A DNA stretch of 64,000 nt from Candidatus Woesearchaeota archaeon (GCA_018653365.1 JABIAG010000001.1:260772-324771), one strand, 5' to 3'. Shown: positions 19,903 to 36,534, counted from the stretch's first letter. Program-made: numbers and translations. Notes: generated from the sequence alone by a model not told the origin.

Positions 19903-20961
19903 TTAAGTTTTTTGTTCTTGACTTTTAAGTATTTTAACACTTTTTGGATAGTTCTCAACAAGCCAAACAAAAAACTTTGTTGGATCAATCTTTTCCTCAA
20001 TTAGTTGAGCTGTTCGCTTCATGAATTCCGTTCGAAAGTTATCTGATTTAATGATTTCTAATGCTTTCTCAATCACTTCATCTCCGTTAAGAATCTGAAA
20101 TAATAATCCGCGTTGTTTTAATTCATCACAAATTCCAGATTTATAACTATTAACTAAAATGTTGGGTGTGCCCATCATGGCACACTCACTAGTTGTAGTA
20201 ACTCCCTCACCAATATGTAAACAAGAAAATGCTAAAGCATCATGCAATCTATCAGGGGGTATGTCAAGTTCAAATTCTTTTAATTCATCATCAATTTCAC
20301 CTTCACTTGAAATGAAAACTTTGACTATTTTTGAGAGCGTATGAACCAACTTCTTTTTTTCCTCAAGAGAAAACCCTTTTAGAGTTAAGTCATGAAATGC
20401 ATTAAACGAAATAAACCGAATTATAACATATTTTTCTCCCGGCTTTACTTTAAGAAGGTCTAAAACGGATTCATCAGGTTTAAAATAATTAGGATGTAAA
20501 TAGCTAAGTTCTATGAATCCATTGAAATTAATTTGTTTTTTTCCTAAATCCTCAGAAAAACAAGAGGGAGTGCAGATTGTTTTAGTAAATGGTTTGTAAA
20601 GCATTTGACCTAGTTTAGCATTTTCAGTATCATTAAAAATTATTGAAGGTTTTCTTAAAAACCAGGCAGCCTGAGCAGCATACATGGATCCAAATCCTAA
20701 AAAAATATCTGGTTTGAACTTTTTAGCAATTTTAATCATTTTTAGATCAGCTTTTAATAAATAAAACATTTTACCAATCATCTTTTTAGAACCTGTACCT
20801 CGACTAACAAAAGGGAGTTGGAACTTTTTTATAAGTTCAAAAACAATCCCTCTGTTTCTGGCAACAATCAAACACTCATGCCCTTTTTCAGTCATTATTT
20901 TAATGAAGTATTTAAAATAATGAACGTGTGCAGGATGTCCGATATCAATTAATACTCTCAT
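19903..20961 (-). CDS. DUF354-family protein (predicted glycosyltransferase-like)
   Basis: MRVLIDIGHPAHVHYFKYFIK N-terminus is characteristic of DUF354. Confidence 0.6.
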   Translation of the reverse strand: MRVLIDIGHPAHVHYFKYFIKIMTEKGHECLIVARNRGIVFELIKKFQLPFVSRGTGSKKMIGKMFYLLKADLKMIKIAKKFKPDIFLGFGSMYAAQAAWFLRKPSIIFNDTENAKLGQMLYKPFTKTICTPSCFSEDLGKKQINFNGFIELSYLHPNYFKPDESVLDLLKVKPGEKYVIIRFISFNAFHDLTLKGFSLEEKKKLVHTLSKIVKVFISSEGEIDDELKEFELDIPPDRLHDALAFSCLHIGEGVTTTSECAMMGTPNILVNSYKSGICDELKQRGLLFQILNGDEVIEKALEIIKSDNFRTEFMKRTAQLIEEKIDPTKFFVWLVENYPKSVKILKSQEQKT

Positions 20962-22445
20962 TTTTTAAAAATTAAACGCACTCCATTTTTAACGTTTTTC
21001 TTAATCCCTGTTTCTTTGATCATATCGAAAATTCTTAATGAGAATAGCTTTTTAATTCTATTTCTGCGGTTTTTGTTATCGGTAATTTTTTCCATCTTTG
21101 AAACAAGTGTATTAAATTTTTCTTGATCTAAATTTAAACAAAAACAATGTTCGCGACTTTGATGGTTTTGAAGCGAGGGATTATAATCCTCTTTAATTAA
21201 ATTATGTTCTTTACAAAATTTAAATATTTCAGTTCCGGGATATGGACAAAAGGTACTTAATGTAACACTATCTGCTTTTATTTTCTTTATTGCTTTAAGA
21301 GTATCTTTTAGCGTTTCTTCTGTCTCATATGGAAAACCTACCATAAATAATGCACTCAACTCAATTCTATTACTTTTTATGATTTTACAAGCATTAAAAA
21401 TCTCTTCAATAGTAACATTTTTTCTCATTTTATCAAGAATAAAATTGTTGCCTGATTCAACACTTAGCAATATTTTATAACATCCTGCTTTTTTCATAAT
21501 TTTAATGGTTGCATCGTCAACAAGTTTTGCAGAAAATTCACAAACCCATTTTAAACCAGGAAAGTGTTCAAGTATAGCAAGACATAACTTTTTAATTTGA
21601 TCATTATTAATTCTAAACAGGTCATCACGAAAATTGATAAACTTGACCCCTAATTCTTGTAATAATTTTATTTCTTTGATGACATTTTCAACACTTCGAA
21701 TTCTAGGTTTTCTACCCCAAATTTCTCTTGCCCCACAATAAAAACAATTAAACGGACATCCTCTTGTAGAAAAAATAGACTTAAAAGCAGTTACTGGATA
21801 CTTATTATAATCTTTAAGAATTTCAGGAGCAAATTCATGAGGAAAGGGTAGGGAGTCTAGGTTTTCGATTAGAGGTCGACGAGGGGTTTCAATAATGTTG
21901 CCCTCTTTTTTAAAAATAATTCCTTCAACTTGTTCTAAATCTTTATTATCTTCAATGAACTTAAGCAGTTCAACAATTGTGCGTTCTCCCTCCCCAACAA
22001 CAATAACATCCACTTCATCATTTTTAAGAATGTCCTTGCCGGCAGTAGAAGGATGTGAACCCCCCAGTATAACTAATGTGTTGTTATTAATTTTTTTAAC
22101 AAGTTTAGCTACCTTTAATGCAGAAGCAAAATTGCTTGAATTTGTACTAATCCCAACTACGTCAGGTTTTAAATCTAGAATTGTTTGTTCAATCTCTTTC
22201 CAAACGTGCATTGAGGGATCTTCTAAATTCTTAATATAATTTTTAAATCCCTGACCTGCAAGAAAACCAAACTCTGTAAACTCGCTGTTCTCATTAAAAT
22301 CTGCATTATACGTTGTTACATTCCACGAGGTGTGTTGTTTTATAACTCCTGACAAATATCCTAACGCGAGAGGGTAGATGTCTAGAGAGTAAGAATTTTT
22401 AAAAAGTCTAAAATAAGGAGGTTCAATTAAAAGAATTTTATTTTT
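20958..22445 (-). CDS. B12-binding domain radical SAM protein
   Basis: N-terminal cobalamin-binding domain pattern and FSTRGCPFNCFYCGA (CxxxCxxC). Start taken at MKNKILLIEPP. Confidence 0.8.
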   Translation of the reverse strand, partial: KNKILLIEPPYFRLFKNSYSLDIYPLALGYLSGVIKQHTSWNVTTYNADFNENSEFTEFGFLAGQGFKNYIKNLEDPSMHVWKEIEQTILDLKPDVVGISTNSSNFASALKVAKLVKKINNNTLVILGGSHPSTAGKDILKNDEVDVIVVGEGERTIVELLKFIEDNKDLEQVEGIIFKKEGNIIETPRRPLIENLDSLPFPHEFAPEILKDYNKYPVTAFKSIFSTRGCPFNCFYCGAREIWGRKPRIRSVENVIKEIKLLQELGVKFINFRDDLFRINNDQIKKLCLAILEHFPGLKWVCEFSAKLVDDATIKIMKKAGCYKILLSVESGNNFILDKMRKNVTIEEIFNACKIIKSNRIELSALFMVGFPYETEETLKDTLKAIKKIKADSVTLSTFCPYPGTEIFKFCKEHNLIKEDYNPSLQNHQSREHCFCLNLDQEKFNTLVSKMEKITDNKNRRNRIKKLFSLRIFDMIKETGIKKNVKNGVRLIFKK

Positions 22446-23376
22446 CATTAAGCACATCCGTATAAACCTGGAATATCCTTTTTGCTATGTTTTCATTGCT
22501 GAGATGAAGAATGCTCTCTCTTTCATTATGATTTTTTCCAATTGTTAGTGCAAGTTTAACTTTTTCTTCTATTTCTTTTGCATCAAATGAGGTAAGATGA
22601 CAATTTTCATTATTACCAAACAATTCTTTAACATCTCCTATATCTGTAGAAACAATAGGCAAATTACAAGCTAGTGCTTCTTTAATTGCTAATGGTGACC
22701 CCTCTCGAAAAGAGGTCATTAAAAGAAGATCAGAAGCATTCATTAACAAATTGACCTGTTCTCGAGAATAACCTTTTAATTCTAGTAGTTCAACATCCTC
22801 AAACTTATCCATAACCTCTTTAGCAAGAGGATAGTTCTTAACAGGCCTACTAAATGAGGAAGAAAACAACACATATTTTTTCTTAAGGTCTAAACCCATC
22901 TGTTGTCTGGCATCTTCTTGATTAATTGGGAAAAAAGTTTTAATGTCAACACCACAAGGAATTATGCTAGATCTTCTTGGTTTAAGTAAAATCTTTTTAT
23001 GTAATTTTTTAGTTACAAAAATTCCATACTTTGAAAATAAACCAGCAAAACTCGAAAACAAATTAAGTTTAAAGAAATTAACATCAGAGCCATGGAATGT
23101 TACGACTACTGGACAAATGCGTTGAAGAACCGTTAACCATCCGGTAGTTCCGTGATGGGCATGAACTAAATCAAAATCATTATTCTTAATTGTTTTTCTA
23201 AGTCGTGATAAGTTTTTAAGATAACCTCTAAATTTCTTACCTTTGATCAAAAAAAGAGTTGTTTCAACACCTAAACTTTTTAATTCCTCAACTTGTTCAA
23301 AAATAAAAGGCCTATCCCGTCTCAAATCAAAGTCTTCTGTGTTTACATTTCCACTAAGAACATATAAGACCTTCAT
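22438..23376 (-). CDS. glycosyltransferase family 4
   Basis: GT-B fold. The EX7E-type C-terminal motif region (SFREGSPLAIKEALAC) is present. Confidence 0.75.
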   Translation of the reverse strand: MKVLYVLSGNVNTEDFDLRRDRPFIFEQVEELKSLGVETTLFLIKGKKFRGYLKNLSRLRKTIKNNDFDLVHAHHGTTGWLTVLQRICPVVVTFHGSDVNFFKLNLFSSFAGLFSKYGIFVTKKLHKKILLKPRRSSIIPCGVDIKTFFPINQEDARQQMGLDLKKKYVLFSSSFSRPVKNYPLAKEVMDKFEDVELLELKGYSREQVNLLMNASDLLLMTSFREGSPLAIKEALACNLPIVSTDIGDVKELFGNNENCHLTSFDAKEIEEKVKLALTIGKNHNERESILHLSNENIAKRIFQVYTDVLNEK

Positions 23377-26967: not shown

Positions 26968-27423
26968 TTATTCAACCATTAAAGCAATCCTTTTCGGATC
27001 GTAGTTCCAATCAACAGGAAGTCTACCATTGTTTTTGTAGTACTTTACTAGTCTTTTGGTTTTGGATTGAGTTAAAATTAGTCCTCTTTTAGCACCCTCA
27101 TCTTTATGATTTTTTTCTAAATGCTTTTTAAGAAAAACTTCTTTTTTTAATAATGCCATAACATCTTCTGGAACTTCAGGTTGAAGATCTTTTTCTTTTA
27201 AAACTTGAGTAATTCTCTTTTTGATTACTGTTTTAACATCGGGAATTCCATACTGATCTCTTAAATGAAGACCAATTGCAGAAGCAGTTTCACCAGTTTT
27301 AGCGAGTTTAGTAATGATTAGTTCTATTTCTTTAGCTTTATAGGTCATCCAGGGACCGATCTTTTTGTCTATTGGTTTGTATGATTTAGCTTTTCCATGT
27401 TTTCTTGAATGCATTCTTGCCAT
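26968..27423 (-). CDS. rps15: 30S ribosomal protein S15 (uS15, S13e type)
   Basis: Begins MARMHSRKHGKAKS at the internal Met, which is preceded by a GAGGT SD. The ORF-track N-terminal extension was rejected. Confidence 0.85.
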   Translation of the reverse strand: MARMHSRKHGKAKSYKPIDKKIGPWMTYKAKEIELIITKLAKTGETASAIGLHLRDQYGIPDVKTVIKKRITQVLKEKDLQPEVPEDVMALLKKEVFLKKHLEKNHKDEGAKRGLILTQSKTKRLVKYYKNNGRLPVDWNYDPKRIALMVE

Positions 27424-27525: not shown

Positions 27526-28860
27526 TTATTCTTTAGTTTGTGTTGATTCATTCATAGCAAAATTTGTTGAAAAAAGAATTGCTTGATCTTCAGTAGGGAA
27601 CATTTGAGAACCACTTGTGTATTTTTCATCAAGGATTTCTATGGCTCTTCTATAAAAACCTTTTATGGTATCTGCATTTTCAGCAAGAATCCAGGTGTTA
27701 TTTACTGGATTGATAACTCCTTCTTGTTTCTTTTTCCAAATTTTCCAACGTGAAGGTTTCCTACTTTGAGGTTGCCATTCAGTACTAAGGGCATTAGCTA
27801 ATTTGCTTTTTGCTGCTTGCATGGCTTTAGCACTAGCAAGAACTGGATCGTTAGCTTCTGTTTCTGATATGTAAGCAGTTAGGTCTCCATCATAACCTTG
27901 ATCAAGTCTATCTTTTGCTCTTTGAGCAACTCCCTCTCTTGCACGTCTATGGGAATTTACTCCTCTATCAGAAAGACCTGTAAAACCAAAATAGTTGTCT
28001 GCAGGTTTTTCTTCAATCGCAAGTTCGTAATCAGTTAAAGTTTGAAGATTATTAACGAAAGCATCACCTGTGTTGTTTGCTAAAGCATCAAGTGCAGGTT
28101 CAGCACTCATATCATGATCTTGAAGTGCAGTAACTATGTTATCTCTTAACCCTTGGATTGCGGTTTGAAGTCGTCTAGCTCCCCCCTCTCCTAAACTTCC
28201 AATATGAAGTTCATTTAAAGGACAAATATAACGATCATCTTCTTTTCTCCAGGTAGTATAATCTGTTGGAATAATTGGTTGAGGAACTTTTGCATCAGGA
28301 TCAATACTTACTGCGGGCATAAATCTTTCTATTAGTGTTGGATCTTGTTGAGTGTATCTTCCAAGCTCATCAAGTAAGTGAGCAGCTTGAGGAAAAGCAG
28401 CATTAGGTGAAGATGTAACGTTTTCTAACCAATCATGTAAGTCAGAAAGATGCCAGGGCTGACGAGCTTGCATTCTTGCATTACCACAAAGAGTTGCATA
28501 ATCTTGAGCTCTTCGTTCAGCACCAGTTCTAGAAAAACCACCAAATTGAGCTTCATCATCATCATCACAAAAAGGATCATTAAACATACCATTATCATAA
28601 GTAGTCCAGTTAGCAACATCAGAAGCATTTACAAGGCCAGTAATTGCATCTTCAATCAAATCAGCTCTTGCAATACGATCTGTTGCTTCATATTCTTGTC
28701 TAACAATTGCTTCTTTAGAATCTTGTCCATGAAAAATTTCTTTTATTAAATCAACGGTGTGAGGAATTGCTGTTGTTAGACCCATACCTATTGCAAGTGC
28801 AACGGCTCTTTTACGAACTCTTGGGTTTTCTGTTGGAGATCCTCTTGGTTCTGGTGTCAT
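27526..28860 (-). CDS. hypothetical protein (Lys-poor, Ala/Asp/Gln-rich)
   Basis: 444-aa ORF with no motif I recognise. Co-directional with, and 43 nt downstream of, the radical SAM gene. Confidence 0.5.
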   Translation of the reverse strand: MTPEPRGSPTENPRVRKRAVALAIGMGLTTAIPHTVDLIKEIFHGQDSKEAIVRQEYEATDRIARADLIEDAITGLVNASDVANWTTYDNGMFNDPFCDDDDEAQFGGFSRTGAERRAQDYATLCGNARMQARQPWHLSDLHDWLENVTSSPNAAFPQAAHLLDELGRYTQQDPTLIERFMPAVSIDPDAKVPQPIIPTDYTTWRKEDDRYICPLNELHIGSLGEGGARRLQTAIQGLRDNIVTALQDHDMSAEPALDALANNTGDAFVNNLQTLTDYELAIEEKPADNYFGFTGLSDRGVNSHRRAREGVAQRAKDRLDQGYDGDLTAYISETEANDPVLASAKAMQAAKSKLANALSTEWQPQSRKPSRWKIWKKKQEGVINPVNNTWILAENADTIKGFYRRAIEILDEKYTSGSQMFPTEDQAILFSTNFAMNESTQTKE

Positions 28861-28903
28861 TGACTGGTGGTAAAATAAATGAGCTTATAAAGGTTTTGGG
28901 TAG

Positions 28904-30244
28904 TTATGCTTGGGTGTTTTGAGGTGGGTTGTATGTTGCTAATTCTTCATTAAACTCAACATAACGTGGGTGCCAGTTCTCCGGCCACATTTGTTTAGCA
29001 ATTTGTTCACTAAGTAAACATAATGTTGAACGAACACTTCCTGCACGCTTTTGTTTTTCTAACAAAGCAAGATAATTCTGGTAATCTGGAAATTGAGTCA
29101 TTCTTTCTCTAATTGCATGAATGTTGTTTGCATAACCAATTCCCTCTATGCCTTCTTCAGAAACAAAATAACGATTAAGGGATGCTCTTATCTCTTGACT
29201 TTCGGGATCATCAAATTCAGTGTTATAAGGCACAACGTTTCCTATTGAATTAGTGTTGGGATAAACTTGAGAAATAGACATTCGCCTTTCCAAATTAGGA
29301 TCTAATCTAAACACTCGGTCTAGAGCTTCAACAATTGTATAGAGCCAGGGAATTCCAGTATGTTCTCCTTGTGCTAAACCGGCTCTTTCAAGAAGTGGGT
29401 CTGCTCTTAAGTGTTCATGCAAATATCCTTGTAAGGTGTATTGTTTTCTGTTTAAAGGTAAGACTGTAAAGTTAGTTCCTAACGGACTAAACCAAGTAAT
29501 CGTATCAACAAATTGCTGAATGGATTGTTCTTCTGTTAAACCGGGCATGCCAATAATTACATCTGGAGATGCTTTAACATCATATCTACGCATTAGCTCA
29601 ACAGATTTAACAATTTGTTCTCTAGTCAAATCTTTGTTTAACCAATGATTCAAAACAAATTCATCTGAAGTTTCTGCTCCAAATTCAAGAGTAAATTTGG
29701 TATCACCAAAACACCTTCTTAAAAGTCGAAGTCGATCTTCTGTAACATCTGTTGCTCTTACCTCAAATACATAACCTAATTTTGGGGGTTTAGATAATAT
29801 TGGAGTTTCAAATAATTCTAAAAATGTTTCTTCTGGAGTTTCTGTTGGACAAAACATATTGTAATTTGAAATTAATTCTTTTGGTCTCAGTGGATCTGGT
29901 TGTTCGCCTCTTGCGTTTGTAAAACTTCTTTTCATCACTTTTCCATACAAGTCAACATCTCTTTCTCTTAAAACCATCATTGCCGCTGCACCTGCTGTGA
30001 ATTCAGAATGATAGTCACATATACTACACCCTGCAAATTCACCTTCATTATTTCTGTGAACACAACCCAGAGAAGGTAAAAGACTTAGACTGCCGTGCTC
30101 ATATTGATATCCGCCCATGAGACAGGTTTCAGTTGCTTCTGCAACTAACTCTTCAGTGGAAAGTGCAGTTAATCTATCCTGATTTTGTTTGGAATTTGCT
30201 GAAACTGGTTCCCATATTTTTTTAATTACATCTTCTATAAACAT
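28904..30244 (-). CDS. radical SAM protein, YhcC/TIGR01212-like (Elp3-related) with CX11CX2C cluster motif
   Basis: GCVHRNNEGEFAGCSIC has the spacing C-x11-C-x2-C. DVIIGMPGLTEEQ matches the radical-SAM hhGhPGET motif. C-terminal ~130 aa has no recognisable domain. Confidence 0.55.
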   Translation of the reverse strand: MFIEDVIKKIWEPVSANSKQNQDRLTALSTEELVAEATETCLMGGYQYEHGSLSLLPSLGCVHRNNEGEFAGCSICDYHSEFTAGAAAMMVLRERDVDLYGKVMKRSFTNARGEQPDPLRPKELISNYNMFCPTETPEETFLELFETPILSKPPKLGYVFEVRATDVTEDRLRLLRRCFGDTKFTLEFGAETSDEFVLNHWLNKDLTREQIVKSVELMRRYDVKASPDVIIGMPGLTEEQSIQQFVDTITWFSPLGTNFTVLPLNRKQYTLQGYLHEHLRADPLLERAGLAQGEHTGIPWLYTIVEALDRVFRLDPNLERRMSISQVYPNTNSIGNVVPYNTEFDDPESQEIRASLNRYFVSEEGIEGIGYANNIHAIRERMTQFPDYQNYLALLEKQKRAGSVRSTLCLLSEQIAKQMWPENWHPRYVEFNEELATYNPPQNTQA

Positions 30245-30859
30245 TTATATCACCTTCACTCTGTCATTTAATGGTTCTCTGTTGGGTTTGCCACCAAGTT
30301 CGTTCTTAGGGTATCCAAATCTTATTCCGCTAACTAATTGAAAATCTTTTTTATTAATTTTAACCCAATCATAAATTTCTGGATTGATCCCTGTTTCGAG
30401 TAAATCTCCAGTAATGCAGGCTCCAATTCCTAAATGGTGCGCGGTTAAAGCCATGTTTTGTAATACGCAACCAATGTTGACGAGATCACTATATGCAAAG
30501 CCTCCAACATTTAAAAAATATGATTTAACTTTGCCTCCATAAAACCTGGGATCAACAAAAATTGATCTTCGCTTTTCAAAAAATATTGCTACAATTGCTT
30601 TTGGAATGTTTGTTTCATTAAATTCTTTTTGATCTATAAGTAGGTTTTTCCCTTCTGGGCGTTCAGGAGTTTTAGCATTCATTATTTTATGAATTAACTT
30701 TTTATTTTTTATAACAACAAAATACCAGGGCTGTGAATTTTTAGAACTTGGGGCATAATGGCCATGTTCTAATATTTTTGAAATTGTCTCATCCGAGATT
30801 TCTTTATTTTCATCATACAATCTTACGGATCTTCTATCCTTTATTGTTTTTAGTATCAT
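30245..30859 (-). CDS. nitroreductase-family protein
   Basis: RRSVRLY...APSSKNSQPWYFVVI FMN-binding nitroreductase motif. Its stop abuts the radical SAM start. Confidence 0.75.
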   Translation of the reverse strand: MILKTIKDRRSVRLYDENKEISDETISKILEHGHYAPSSKNSQPWYFVVIKNKKLIHKIMNAKTPERPEGKNLLIDQKEFNETNIPKAIVAIFFEKRRSIFVDPRFYGGKVKSYFLNVGGFAYSDLVNIGCVLQNMALTAHHLGIGACITGDLLETGINPEIYDWVKINKKDFQLVSGIRFGYPKNELGGKPNREPLNDRVKVI

Positions 30860-31416
30860 TCTTATCCCCTTCGGTATGCATGTTCTTTTGTGAGGGGCAG
30901 GGTTTTTTCAAACCTTTTTGTAACAAAAGGAAATAAACCGTGTCCCATTTTACTCCCTTGTGGGGCCATGGTCATGATTACTGCATGTCTTCTGACTGTG
31001 GGTTTTTCATATGTTTGAAGTTTGCTTTTCATTGTTTGATAACTCATTTTGAATTGCCTCTTAAATACCAAATTCCTAATTCTTGATTGAGGTTTTTGGA
31101 TGGTTGTTTTTTCTTTCTTTTACGATATTCAATTTGTTCTTCAATCTCATCTGCGGTGGGATCTGCTGCTCTTGACATTTTAATTTGTACTGGGCAAATA
31201 CCAAATTCCCTTTTCTTGAGATAGGTTTTTTGAACACTTGTGTTTGAGTGCTTTGTATTGACTTTCCAGGTATTGTTTTGCTATCATTTGTTTCACCTCT
31301 TTCCACTTACAAGTGGTAACTATGTTATTAGTAAAGTGCAGGTGTTATTTATATATTTCTAGAGAAACGCCTTAAATAAGGGTAATCTTTATATATAGTG
31401 CCTTATTAATTAAGGT

Positions 31417-31899
31417 ATGCCGGTTAAAACAAGCTTAAAATCAAGAGCAATTGATGAAATAGACAAAAAAATCTTGATGATACTGCAAGATGATGGACGA
31501 GAACAACTAACTTCTATCTCAAAGAAGGTTGGACTAAGTATAGATTCTGTACATAAACGAATAAAAGAGATGATGAGAAAAGATATTGTCGGAATAACCA
31601 CCTCTATAGATCCAAGAAAGATTGGGTACGACCTTATTGCCGATAATAAAATACGGCTAAAGAATGTGAGTGCTGAAGAGAGAACTCAATTTATAAGATA
31701 TTTGCAACAACATAATAGAGTGATAGATATATTTGCACTAATGGGGGACTATGATCTTACCTGTGTATTAATAGCAAAGGATTCAAATGAACTCGAGAAA
31801 TTAATAACTGAAATAAGACAAAAGTTTAGAGACCTAATTGATGAATGGAAAAGTTTGCTAGTATTAAAAACATATAAAATAGATCGCTACGATCTTTAA
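31417..31899 (+). CDS. Lrp/AsnC-family transcriptional regulator
   Basis: IDKKILMILQDDGREQLTSISKKVGLSIDSVHKRIKEM HTH plus a C-terminal RAM domain. Confidence 0.8.
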   Translation: MPVKTSLKSRAIDEIDKKILMILQDDGREQLTSISKKVGLSIDSVHKRIKEMMRKDIVGITTSIDPRKIGYDLIADNKIRLKNVSAEERTQFIRYLQQHNRVIDIFALMGDYDLTCVLIAKDSNELEKLITEIRQKFRDLIDEWKSLLVLKTYKIDRYDL

Positions 31900-33301: not shown

Positions 33302-33775
33302 TTAAGCAACTTTCTCTTTCCAATTAGAATTAACCTTTTCTAAAAAAGGCAACATTTTTGGTTTGAATTCAGAATTCCAAAAATTAATTGCATTATCAAT
33401 AAATGCACCTTCTTGAAGTTTGTCTTTCTTTAAACCAATTAAAGTATTAGAACTAGTAATTTGAACAAGTTTATTCATTATGTTAAGTAATTCAGTTCGT
33501 TCCTCTTCACTAAACAACTGATGTTCAGTCATAGATAAAAGTGAGTTTGGGATAGGCATAACAATTCCATGAAGGTAACCAATCCAAGAATTATAAGTGT
33601 CAGTAATCCTTTTACAAATTTGTCTGGAAAGTTGAACACTAACAAAACCTTCATGTTGAACAAAATCTTTAATGAAAAAAACTTCATCCAATTCATCAAG
33701 TGTTACATTAAATTTAAGAGTTTGTTTAAGTTTAGTAAACTCTTCATTTAGTGTTATTAGTAATTCTTTTTTCAT
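33302..33775 (-). CDS. hypothetical protein
   Basis: 157-aa ORF upstream of and co-directional with zwf. Confidence 0.4.
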   Translation of the reverse strand: MKKELLITLNEEFTKLKQTLKFNVTLDELDEVFFIKDFVQHEGFVSVQLSRQICKRITDTYNSWIGYLHGIVMPIPNSLLSMTEHQLFSEEERTELLNIMNKLVQITSSNTLIGLKKDKLQEGAFIDNAINFWNSEFKPKMLPFLEKVNSNWKEKVA

Positions 33776-35181: not shown

Positions 35182-36534
35182 TTGTCTAATCTTAAAAAGA
35201 TTCTGGCATTTACCAAAGATTTAAAAAAGAGGTTAAATTGCTTTAATTCTTATATGGCAAGTGGATTAATTCTAGCACCTGGTTTAGACGAGTTTATGGC
35301 AGAATTTACTGTAAAAGAGATCAAGGCAGATCATGTAGCTTTCATGGCAACAGAAGCCACAGTAGAATTAATTCATCATGTTGTGGAAAAATTAGAGATA
35401 AAATCATATAAAACATTCTTTGTAAAAAACATAATCAGTACATCTGAAGCAATAGAAGAATTCATCAACGCATTTCAATGGCTAAAAGAAAAAGAGTGTA
35501 CTAAAATAACAGTAGACGCAACAAATTGTATAACTGTAATGGAAATGGCAACCTATGTTGCAGCAAGTTTAATGGACCTGTTTGAAAAAGGAGAAACTGA
35601 ACACGAAGTGAACTTAGTGTATGTACATTCAGATTTTGAAATTAAAAAAGATGGAGTTGCGGGAGAGGTAAGGGGAACAGAACGATTAATTGAACTAGAA
35701 AAGCCATTAGATAGTTTAGGAATTATCTTGGCACACGACGCAATACATGCATTTAATAGTAACCGATACGTACAAGCTGCAGAAAACTTTAAAGTATTGG
35801 GAGAGAATTCCACTTCTGATAAATCATTATTTTACCGAGGGTTGAAACACCTGTCTCAGGCATACAATTTTTGGGATAAAATGAACTTTAATGATGCACT
35901 ACTTGCTTTGAAAAAAGCAGAAGATGAACTTAATAGAGTGTGGTACACAAGAAACAAAAGTGCTTTTTCCCATGTGAAAGAAAACATTAAGGTTCTAGAA
36001 GAACTAAAAAACCATAATGAACTTGCAGTAATAATTGACCTGTACATGAACGCAGTAAGACGACAAAAATCAGAAAGGTATGATGACGCTCTCGCAAGAC
36101 TTTATGCGTGTGTTGAAAGAATTTCACAACACCAATTAAAAGAACATGGAATTGTTACAAAAAATCCAGATTATTCTAACTTACCTAAAGAGGTTAAGGA
36201 TAGATTTGAAAAAGAGATCGGACTACCTAAAGAATTAGAACTGAAAAAAGGACTGTATCTATTATCTTTGCTAAATGATCCAATAGGAAAAGAAGTACTA
36301 GGTCTGCGTTACAAGTCAATAGTCGGAATTATTGGATTACGTAATACCTCAATACTAGCACATGGAATAAAACCCATCGGTGAGAAAAACTTTCTTGATT
36401 TCAAAGAAAAATTATCAGATAAACTATACAATGCATTCTTATTACATTATAAAATGGGAGCAGGATTTATTGATGGCCATAAACACATAAAACTCTCAAA
36501 TGTACGTGATTTGATGTATAAAGAAAGATTTTAA
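35182..36534 (+). CDS. CARF-HEPN protein, Csx1/Csm6-like (orphan, no cas context in window)
   Basis: N-terminal Rossmann-like CARF pattern (LILAPGLDEF ... KITVDATNCITVMEMA). Central YMNAVRRQKSERYDDALARLYACVE helix is typical of Csx1/Csm6 HEPN. C-terminal RNTSILAHG contains the R-x4-6-H motif. Confidence 0.5.
   Translation: MSNLKKILAFTKDLKKRLNCFNSYMASGLILAPGLDEFMAEFTVKEIKADHVAFMATEATVELIHHVVEKLEIKSYKTFFVKNIISTSEAIEEFINAFQWLKEKECTKITVDATNCITVMEMATYVAASLMDLFEKGETEHEVNLVYVHSDFEIKKDGVAGEVRGTERLIELEKPLDSLGIILAHDAIHAFNSNRYVQAAENFKVLGENSTSDKSLFYRGLKHLSQAYNFWDKMNFNDALLALKKAEDELNRVWYTRNKSAFSHVKENIKVLEELKNHNELAVIIDLYMNAVRRQKSERYDDALARLYACVERISQHQLKEHGIVTKNPDYSNLPKEVKDRFEKEIGLPKELELKKGLYLLSLLNDPIGKEVLGLRYKSIVGIIGLRNTSILAHGIKPIGEKNFLDFKEKLSDKLYNAFLLHYKMGAGFIDGHKHIKLSNVRDLMYKERF

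Follow-up and report, generated by a model that had tools for sequence, protein, structure and literature searches.

The window analysed here is a stretch of 64,000 nucleotides from Candidatus Woesearchaeota archaeon (GCA_018653365.1, JABIAG010000001.1:260772-324771). It contains a gene for an uncharacterised radical S-adenosylmethionine (SAM) enzyme, hereafter rSAM, together with a gene for a nitroreductase-family protein (NTR) and a gene for a 444-aa protein. The original prediction had described the three as one operon. The listing of open reading frames (ORFs) in the window places all three on the minus strand, co-directional and upstream of rps15, at the coordinates at which they had been predicted:

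30859..30245, minus strand: NTR, nitroreductase-family protein, 204 aa (HN592_02200)
30244..28904, minus strand: rSAM, radical SAM enzyme, 446 aa (HN592_02195)
30017..30064, minus strand: codons for C61...C73..C76 of rSAM, predicted [4Fe-4S]/SAM cluster ligands, invariant in the family alignment
28860..27526, minus strand: acidic, Lys-poor protein of 444 aa (HN592_02190) with a putative N-terminal hydrophobic anchor

The stop codon of NTR abuts the start codon of rSAM with 0 nt in between (ATA-TAA-ATG-TTT), and the gap between rSAM and the 444-aa gene is exactly 43 nt; both junctions agreed with the prediction when read from the sequence. Downstream of the 444-aa gene, profile scans identified rps15 followed by the gene of an archaeal RecJ/GAN nuclease. 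In the 176-aa rps15 ORF, the match to the NCBIfam S15 model begins only at residue 26, which puts the true start at position 27423. ORFs of 444 to 446 aa with homologs elsewhere are, in a genome of 33% GC, real genes and not chance ORFs. The identical rSAM protein with the same neighbours was present on all 23 contigs of the species that were read, and no tRNA gene that could have served as an integration site was found in the window. As set out below, the evidence supports a conserved unit of rSAM, NTR and a small ORF (sORF3) directly upstream of NTR, with the 444-aa gene standing outside this unit.

The rSAM protein carries the stretch GCVHRNNEGEFAGCSIC, corresponding to C61-x11-C73-x2-C76. 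These cysteines are invariant in a 14-member family alignment, as are G232, P234, G235, T237 and E238 of the GMPGLTEE motif (DVIIGMPGLTEEQ), which bears out both the C-x11-C-x2-C cluster motif and the hhGhPGET-type motif predicted earlier. The alignment comprises 27 invariant columns, and the window protein keeps every invariant residue. The Pfam radical SAM profile PF04055 was passed marginally (30.1 bits, cutoff 29.5). An AlphaFold2 (AF2) model (pLDDT 86, pTM 0.89) predicts a radical-SAM barrel with family-specific N-terminal helices (residues 1-55) and a conserved C-terminal helical bundle (approximately residues 325-446), in line with the C-terminal extension that had been proposed. Foldseek matched the model with a probability of 1.0 to LAM, Elp3, TsrM, MiaB and others, all at a TM score ≤ 0.43, indicating a generic rSAM similarity. 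Scans with Pfam and NCBIfam detected neither a SPASM/twitch nor an RRE domain, neither a TIGR01211 match nor a GNAT/acetyltransferase domain. The family alignment contains no conserved Cys in the archaeal protein beyond the three cluster ligands, and a single cluster is therefore expected in it. An extra CxC...C triad, present in the C-terminal domain of eight of the 13 bacterial members (e.g. residues 346/348/380 in P0002) and missing from the archaeal protein, suggests an auxiliary metal site in one bacterial subgroup.

The cluster motif had been considered typical of TIGR01212/YhcC. The placement in an Elp3-related, uncharacterised group held, whereas that in TIGR01212 did not: the TIGR01212 model (YhcC/YtqA/MnmL) scored 17.9 bits (E 1.3e-3) against a cutoff of 180, and TIGR01210 (RaSEA) scored higher, 43.9 bits against a cutoff of 212. 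TIGR01210 was the best curated match for all 14 family members (best E 4.7e-22, all far below the cutoff), while TIGR01211 (Elp3) matched two of the 14 weakly. The solved structure that best matched the family profile was the queuine lyase 6p78 (E 1.7e-4, approximately 90 residues). These scores support an assignment of rSAM, with its unusual Cys spacing, to the Elp3/RaSEA/YtqA-like group, in which it is uncharacterised; judged by its sequence, it is closest among characterised families to RaSEA, queuine lyase, YtqA/MnmL and Elp3 and a member of none.

Homologs of rSAM form 14 clusters among 5.8 billion proteins, the window protein included. This family size is a lower bound, since a further member encoded on the contig fragment L028 (see below) is not in the protein collections and was hence missed by the database search. 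The other 13 clusters share 28-38% identity with the archaeal protein and carry the source names Paenibacillus, Herbinix and Defluviitaleaceae. A midpoint-rooted neighbour-joining tree had the shape of a star, the archaeal protein being 27-38% identical to every other member; no donor lineage can be named. No further members were found in viral contigs, plasmids or phages, and a literature search returned no published description of the family.

Six bacterial loci of the family were read as DNA. In all six, a phosphopantetheine carrier protein is encoded one to five genes from the rSAM gene, and all six contain homologs of BtrH_N-like (C39-fold) transferases, five recognised via BLAST clustering and one (L007) via Pfam BtrH_N. 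A B12-binding rSAM is present in four. Other neighbours are megasynthases of the nonribosomal peptide synthetase (NRPS) and polyketide synthase types, Orn/Arg-type or Asp decarboxylases, class-II or class-I aminoacyl-tRNA synthetase (aaRS)-like proteins, GNATs and glycosyltransferases. Such a gene content matches pathways that tailor aminoacyl/acyl-S-carrier proteins, of which the assembly of the butirosin side chain is an example. Neither NTR nor a relative of the 444-aa protein occurs in the six loci, and the archaeal window encodes no carrier protein, BtrH-like protein or NRPS. Small ORFs beside the bacterial homologs were considered as relatives of sORF3 and rejected as unrelated, one of them being an acyl carrier protein (ACP). 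Two of the bacterial clusters encode truncated aaRS-like proteins beside carrier proteins (L002 6177-7037 and L007 4685-5671). One has a class II core (weak, E 3e-4), the other belongs to class I (tRNA-synt_1b), and both are reminiscent of amino acid:carrier-protein ligases.

The NTR protein matches PF00881 with 88.2 bits (cutoff 23.5, E 9e-25) and, over its full length, PDB 3gfa (E 3e-19). Its RxSxR motif for binding the phosphate of flavin mononucleotide (FMN; R9, S11 and R13 invariant) and a PSxxNxQPW motif are conserved. The named subfamilies BluB, NfsA/B, FbiB-C, SagB and IYD all scored far below their cutoffs (e.g. BluB 34.8 vs 150, SagB 18 vs 78). NTR has a subfamily of its own with only two close relatives, of 61 and 49% identity, and the three share subfamily-specific motifs not found in the remaining matches (≤ 36%). 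On contig L028 (1.2 kb, 27.6% GC), the stop codon (TAA) of the 49% relative is separated by 1 nt from the ATG of an ORF starting MFMKKVV.... The 132-aa rSAM fragment encoded at L028 820-1233 matches every family member (E 1e-13 to 1e-27; window protein 4e-18) and carries GCSHWYDGCSMC (Cx6Cx2C), with a cluster loop five residues shorter. On contig L029 (679 bp), which encodes the 61% relative, the contig edge reads GTC-TAA-A-ATGT; the family consensus start is MF. The close stop/start junction thus recurs in two other contigs, and the predicted pairing of NTR with rSAM is supported as a linked gene pair at the level of gene order.

Upstream of NTR lie three small ORFs, a divergent intergenic region and a regulator gene:

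30862..31047, minus strand: sORF3, 61-aa basic protein without Cys (HN592_02205), also predicted by public gene callers
31044..31178, minus strand: sORF2, 44 aa, of uncertain coding status (sequence reading)
31180..31287, minus strand: sORF1, 35 aa, Shine-Dalgarno sequence GAGGTG, conserved in the sister genome
31288..31416, both directions: divergent intergenic/promoter region between the sORF1 side and the AsnC/Lrp gene, with TATA-like boxes in both directions
31417..31899, plus strand: divergent Lrp/AsnC-family regulator (Pfam HTH_AsnC-type and AsnC_trans_reg)

sORF3 ends 2 nt before the ATG of NTR, and its own ATG overlaps the sORF2 stop codon (ATGA). The five cistrons sORF1-sORF2-sORF3-NTR-rSAM are spaced by 1, -4 (the ATGA overlap), 2 and 0 nt. 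Upstream of its NTR, L029 retains an in-frame C-terminus, PFATRRLEQIRHQKPTEAYRR followed by a stop codon; sORF3 of the window ends in PFVTKRFEKTLPLTKEHAYRRG, likewise followed by a stop codon. The C-terminal 21 residues are conserved between the two, with the same 2-nt spacing and four synonymous codon changes. sORF3 itself has no match in Pfam, PADLOC or PHROG. Gene order and conservation support sORF3-NTR-rSAM as the unit, a compact set of three genes of approximately 2.2 kb. The whole string from sORF1 to rSAM is probably one transcript, for which the Lrp/AsnC protein would be a candidate regulator. As to a structured RNA or riboswitch in the leader, there was no Rfam match of note.

The leader was also compared with a sister genome (contigs L008 and L010), whose closeness is apparent from S15 (94%), RecJ (80%), a 93-aa HTH protein (97%) and a 134-aa membrane protein (62%). 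Positions 1-250 of L008 align with the leader at the DNA level, Shine-Dalgarno sequence and promoter included: the promoter region 31288..31416 is approximately 80% identical, sORF1 matches in tblastn with 69% over 35 aa, and the start of the Lrp/AsnC gene is conserved at the beginning of L008. A different gene follows 1 nt after sORF1 in the sister contig, so that sORF1 precedes a different enzyme cassette there (L008 248-2659), consisting of a 348-aa acidic unknown, a 277-aa CN-hydrolase and a 172-aa weakly C39-peptidase-like protein in the position of NTR and rSAM. In the window, sORF1 and sORF2 have a C-terminal motif in common (SKNLSQEKGIWYL in sORF1, SKNLNQELGIWYL in sORF2), which stems from a 38-nt direct repeat (31063-31100 and 31196-31233, 82% identical, 133 nt apart). 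The repeat could reflect a regulatory upstream ORF, a peptide gene or a recombination scar.

The original prediction had seen no evident precursor peptide at the locus. That statement no longer holds, given three tightly packed small ORFs ahead of NTR, one of them conserved with it. One or more of the small ORFs might encode precursor or scaffold peptides of a pathway akin to those of ribosomally synthesised and post-translationally modified peptides (RiPPs), with rSAM as the modifying enzyme and NTR as a dehydrogenase of the SagB/albonoursin-synthase type. The direct position of the ORFs (0-2 nt spacing or overlap), the conservation of sORF3 with NTR in L029 and the retention of sORF1 in the sister genome ahead of a C39-like peptidase and a CN-hydrolase all fit such a pathway, and peptide dehydrogenases of the nitroreductase fold exist, to two of which (SagB and albonoursin synthase) NTR shows weak matches. 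Yet SPASM/twitch and RRE domains as well as auxiliary Cys are missing from rSAM, neither a YcaO nor a transporter nor a leader-type motif was detected, and sORF3 does not occur in the 125 nt upstream of the L028 NTR. The conservation of sORF1 (approximately 80% at the nucleotide level) equals that of the flanking non-coding promoter, which leaves coding constraint unproven, and in bacteria the association of the family is with carrier proteins rather than peptides. On balance, a RiPP-like pathway appears unlikely. A bolder variant takes the Lrp/AsnC-divergent leader, the small ORFs and the swappable cassettes together as a maturation locus for ribosomal peptides or small proteins in DPANN archaea, in which a peptide modified by rSAM and an NTR dehydrogenase would replace the phosphopantetheinyl carriers of the bacterial relatives. 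We regard this variant as a long shot; if true, rSAM would define a novel class of peptide-modifying radical SAM enzymes, and DPANN archaea would gain their first pathway of this kind.

The third gene of the original prediction encodes a protein without any match in Pfam, NCBIfam, PHROG or PADLOC. Only three relatives were found among 1.84 billion representative proteins, and a single one is full-length (P0018, contig CAYRWJ010000021.1, 26-28% identity, E 4e-30). P0018 belongs to the sister genome and occupies the same slot directly upstream of rps15-recJ, on a contig that contains no homolog of NTR or rSAM. Promoter positions were derived from the 59 ORFs of the window, searched over 120 nt upstream of each start codon: 32 TATA-like hexamers fall at -30..-21 and at most 9 in any other 10-nt bin. 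Most genes therefore appear to have leaderless mRNAs, and the distance peak can help to delimit transcription units in this genome. One such box lies ahead of the 444-aa gene:

28885..28891, minus strand: TATA-like box TTTATAA, 31 nt upstream of the ATG of the 444-aa gene, within the 43-nt gap

No TATA-like hexamer was found within 60 nt of the start of NTR or rSAM. TTTATAA is a probable independent promoter of the 444-aa gene, from which a leaderless transcript would start. Both orthologs begin with a basic N-terminal stretch followed by a hydrophobic segment of approximately 15 residues (Kyte-Doolittle maxima of 1.74 at residues 19-33 of the window protein and 1.94 at residue 7 of the ortholog), and an anchored or secreted protein would fit the very fast divergence. 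Structure prediction, which had been proposed for this protein, yielded a model (AF2, three-sequence alignment) that is confident only for residues 267-443, and Foldseek retrieved no similar fold at E < 0.9 from PDB or BFVD. A relationship to BtrH was tried and rejected (hhalign probability 0.1). The 444-aa gene is lineage-specific and fast-evolving, probably with a membrane-anchored product, and stands outside the rSAM module.

The composition of the locus had been taken as a sign that rSAM and the 444-aa protein are a foreign pair beside a host-like NTR. The underlying Lys contents were reproduced: 3.6% in rSAM and 4.1% in the 444-aa protein, 10.8% in NTR and 10-18% in neighbouring genes. 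The raised GC over 27.5-30.5 kb comes entirely from codon positions 1 and 2. GC in these positions is 0.49 in the 444-aa gene and 0.44 in rSAM, compared with 0.33-0.38 in host genes; GC in position 3 (GC3) is 0.14 and 0.21, respectively, both host-like next to a host range of 0.15-0.29. This codon-position bias recurs in the ortholog of the 444-aa protein in the sister genome. The composition therefore reflects amino-acid content, and a recent horizontal transfer, considered on the basis of GC, was rejected. As the full-length relatives of rSAM are all bacterial-type, rSAM is foreign in its phylogenetic affiliation only, and the notion of a foreign pair is not supported.

These data bear directly on the reading of the locus as a three-gene operon in which the 444-aa protein is a functional, co-acquired foreign partner of rSAM. 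Co-directionality, the short gap of 43 nt, the Lys-poor, acidic and GC-raised character of both proteins, and an arrangement that is constant on the 23 contigs would all suit it. Synteny largely refutes it, as the sister genome has the 444-aa ortholog in position and lacks rSAM and NTR. Moreover, the bacterial rSAM loci encode no relative of the 444-aa protein, nor does this protein resemble BtrH; the TATA-like box in the gap stands at the modal promoter distance of the genome; and the host-like GC3 of 0.14 attributes the raised GC of the gene to amino-acid composition. On other contigs, NTR-rSAM recurred and the 444-aa ortholog was located without either gene. A functional partnership of the 444-aa protein with rSAM is consequently very unlikely.

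The sister cassette lies between the conserved leader with sORF1 and the ortholog of the 444-aa gene, and the presence of a different cassette between the same flanks identifies the site as a cassette-swapping hotspot. More distant relatives retrieved via S15, among them L026 (S15 81%) and L023 (S15 61%), have none of the three genes upstream of rps15. In L026, approximately 0.8 kb separate rps15 from a homolog (48% identical) of the window gene 33302..33775 (157 aa); in the window the distance is 5.9 kb, which again marks the interval as variable. A defence island was considered as an explanation of the hotspot and rejected, as PADLOC defence-system models matched none of NTR, rSAM, the 444-aa protein, sORF3 and the L008 cassette proteins, though a Csx1 gene is located nearby. 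This gene, for a Csx1/CARF-HEPN protein (35182-36534, plus strand, PADLOC E 1e-55), is approximately 4 kb from the module.

A variable interval of this kind raises the possibility that rSAM is a stranded remnant of a bacterial cluster beside a housekeeping nitroreductase, with no joint function of the two. Besides the variation in length and content (5.9 kb here, approximately 0.8 kb in L026, another cassette in L008), the missing bacterial partners (ACP, BtrH-like) and the host-like composition of NTR, which rSAM does not share, would be expected of accidental neighbours. They are at odds with the recurrence of the same adjacency of NTR subfamily and rSAM family, at near-zero spacing, on an independent contig with an NTR of 49% identity. 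The rSAM ORF is intact with every family-invariant residue, and its fully ameliorated GC3 and the unchanged arrangement on 23 contigs argue for long-term retention. A relic without function is hence hardly probable.

Some further observations concern the surroundings of the locus. The sister contig (L008/L010) is labelled 'uncultured Methanosarcinales archaeon', though its S15, RecJ and HTH proteins share 80-97% identity with their counterparts in the present Woesearchaeota genome; it is probably a mis-binned or mislabelled metagenome-assembled genome. The window encodes a second radical SAM enzyme, of the B12-binding class (499 aa, 20958-22457, minus strand), within a glycan-biosynthesis cluster (GT4, DUF354, GFO/IDH, hexapeptide transferase, DegT and Bac_transf). 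It is 25-29% identical to the B12-binding rSAMs beside the rSAM family in bacterial clusters. The syntenic site in L010 is without this gene, and the flanking GT4 and DUF354 homologs abut there. The rest of the window contains archaeal housekeeping genes (EF-2, EF-1alpha, SerRS, an ATP-dependent ligase and FtsZ).

The explanation that we favour, at a probability of roughly 0.55, is that sORF3, NTR and rSAM form a conserved unit in which a single-cluster rSAM acts together with an FMN partner on a substrate that is not carrier-bound, the 444-aa gene being separate. Its weight lies mostly on the gene-unit and family assignments, which the data demonstrate together with the exclusion of the 444-aa gene, and not on the chemistry, which like the substrate is inferred. 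The unit would be transcribed together with the two further small ORFs from the Lrp/AsnC-divergent promoter. The 444-aa gene would be native and rapidly evolving, with its own promoter and a membrane-anchored or secreted product. The C61/C73/C76 cluster is predicted to bind and reductively cleave SAM, and the resulting 5'-deoxyadenosyl radical would abstract a substrate hydrogen. As an auxiliary cluster is missing, the enzyme probably catalyses lyase, rearrangement, C-C or C-N chemistry, like its nearest characterised relatives. In NRPS/BtrH-type pathways, the bacterial family members presumably act on aminoacyl or acyl groups bound to carrier proteins; this carrier context would have been lost in the archaeal branch, which would have gained a dedicated FMN partner of the nitroreductase family. 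On the same substrate, NTR may catalyse a coupled two-electron step with its FMN; alternatively, it may feed electrons to the cluster. Candidate substrates, in this case not bound to a carrier protein, would be a small molecule, a CoA thioester or the product of a small ORF.

Several points weigh against this explanation. Independent examples of the NTR-rSAM pair number no more than two or three. Two of these come from contig fragments, and on L029 nothing but 'ATGT' points to the rSAM gene. The N-terminal rSAM fragment of L028 is 31% identical to the window protein and 33-37% identical to bacterial members, and since it is no closer to the former, the pair may have formed twice or be very old. 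sORF3 is missing from the 125 nt upstream of the L028 NTR and is thus not universal. Some read-through transcription into the 444-aa gene may occur, and the neighbourhood offers no recognisable substrate, carrier or additional pathway gene. Finally, enzymes of the nitroreductase family typically transfer two electrons as hydride, and their potential is too high for the clusters of rSAM enzymes, which weakens the variant with NTR as the electron donor.

With approximately 15 known members among billions of proteins, the family is among the rarer full-length rSAM families, and its position is intermediate between the Elp3/RaSEA/YtqA enzymes, which modify tRNA, and natural-product chemistry. It appears to follow two mutually exclusive genomic lifestyles, one in Firmicutes-type carrier-protein/NRPS/BtrH pathways and the other on AT-rich archaeal-type contigs with a private NTR subfamily; this contrast offers a handle on what rSAM needs as a partner, a substrate carrier or a redox protein. 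The conserved nitroreductase partnership of this rare family is newly recognised here. The original prediction had included the wrong third gene and named the wrong nearest family. For annotation transfer, it follows that the 444-aa neighbour is to be treated as a fast-evolving, lineage-specific, probably envelope-type protein and that its raised GC is no sign of recent transfer. The finding is a good lead rather than a discovery, and no function is established by it.

Several known systems lend themselves to comparison. Similar to RaSEA (TIGR01210), rSAM has an extended Cys spacing instead of CxxxCxxC, shares the G-x-E...LNK and GxPGxTE core motifs and probably holds a single cluster. Unlike RaSEA, it is approximately 130 aa longer, with N- and C-terminal domains of its own, and has neither an ArcS partner among the window ORFs scanned nor a tRNA context, its relatives residing in bacterial NRPS/carrier-protein clusters. 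The family-profile match to the queuine lyase 6p78 spans the beta-strand/G-[VI]-E...RN..LNK region, but only approximately 90 residues align, the lyase has just 251 aa, and no 7-deazaguanine genes are located near rSAM. YhcC/YtqA/MnmL and Elp3 belong to the same broad rSAM clade with a long first Cys spacing, and Elp3 structures are among the top Foldseek matches; the scores for TIGR01212 given above, the missing TIGR01211 match and the missing GNAT domain set rSAM apart from both.

These likenesses might indicate a divergent enzyme of RNA modification or 7-deazapurine metabolism, i.e. a RaSEA-, queuine-lyase- or YtqA-like C-N or C-C radical enzyme whose substrate would be tRNA or a salvaged queuine or preQ base, with NTR catalyzing the accompanying redox step. 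That the best matches are RaSEA/TIGR01210 (in 14 of 14 members), queuine lyase 6p78, YtqA/MnmL and Elp3, and that the gene adjoins translation genes, would agree with this role; an archaeal host with a reduced genome must salvage many metabolites. The scores remain far below the cutoffs (43.9 vs 212 and 17.9 vs 180), and the nearest relatives (28-38%) are all found in bacterial carrier-protein/NRPS clusters instead of tRNA contexts. Among the ORFs of the window that were scanned, there was no tgt, arcS or ArcTGT, and rSAM is missing from the sister genome contig, an unusual absence if the enzyme had a core tRNA role. Together with ArcS, with which it forms a complex, RaSEA turns preQ0-Lys-tRNA into archaeosine (PMC11298593), and no ArcS gene is adjacent here. 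A role in RNA or 7-deazapurine chemistry is accordingly improbable.

The bacterial members of the family recall the butirosin system BtrI/J/K/H, being encoded among carrier proteins, BtrH_N-like transferases, Orn/Arg-type pyridoxal-phosphate-dependent decarboxylases and aaRS-like ligases; the archaeal window has none of these partners. To our knowledge, rSAM has no characterised counterpart in the butirosin pathway. Flavoprotein donors genetically or physically coupled to rSAM enzymes are represented by the flavodoxin domain of TYW1 and by Dph3/Cbr1, which serve Dph1-Dph2 and Elp3. The partner at the present locus differs from these in having a nitroreductase fold, not that of a flavodoxin or a cytochrome-b5 reductase. 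In common with the TYW1 and Dph3/Cbr1 systems, a flavin protein would be coupled to an rSAM enzyme, here with NTR abutting rSAM translationally.

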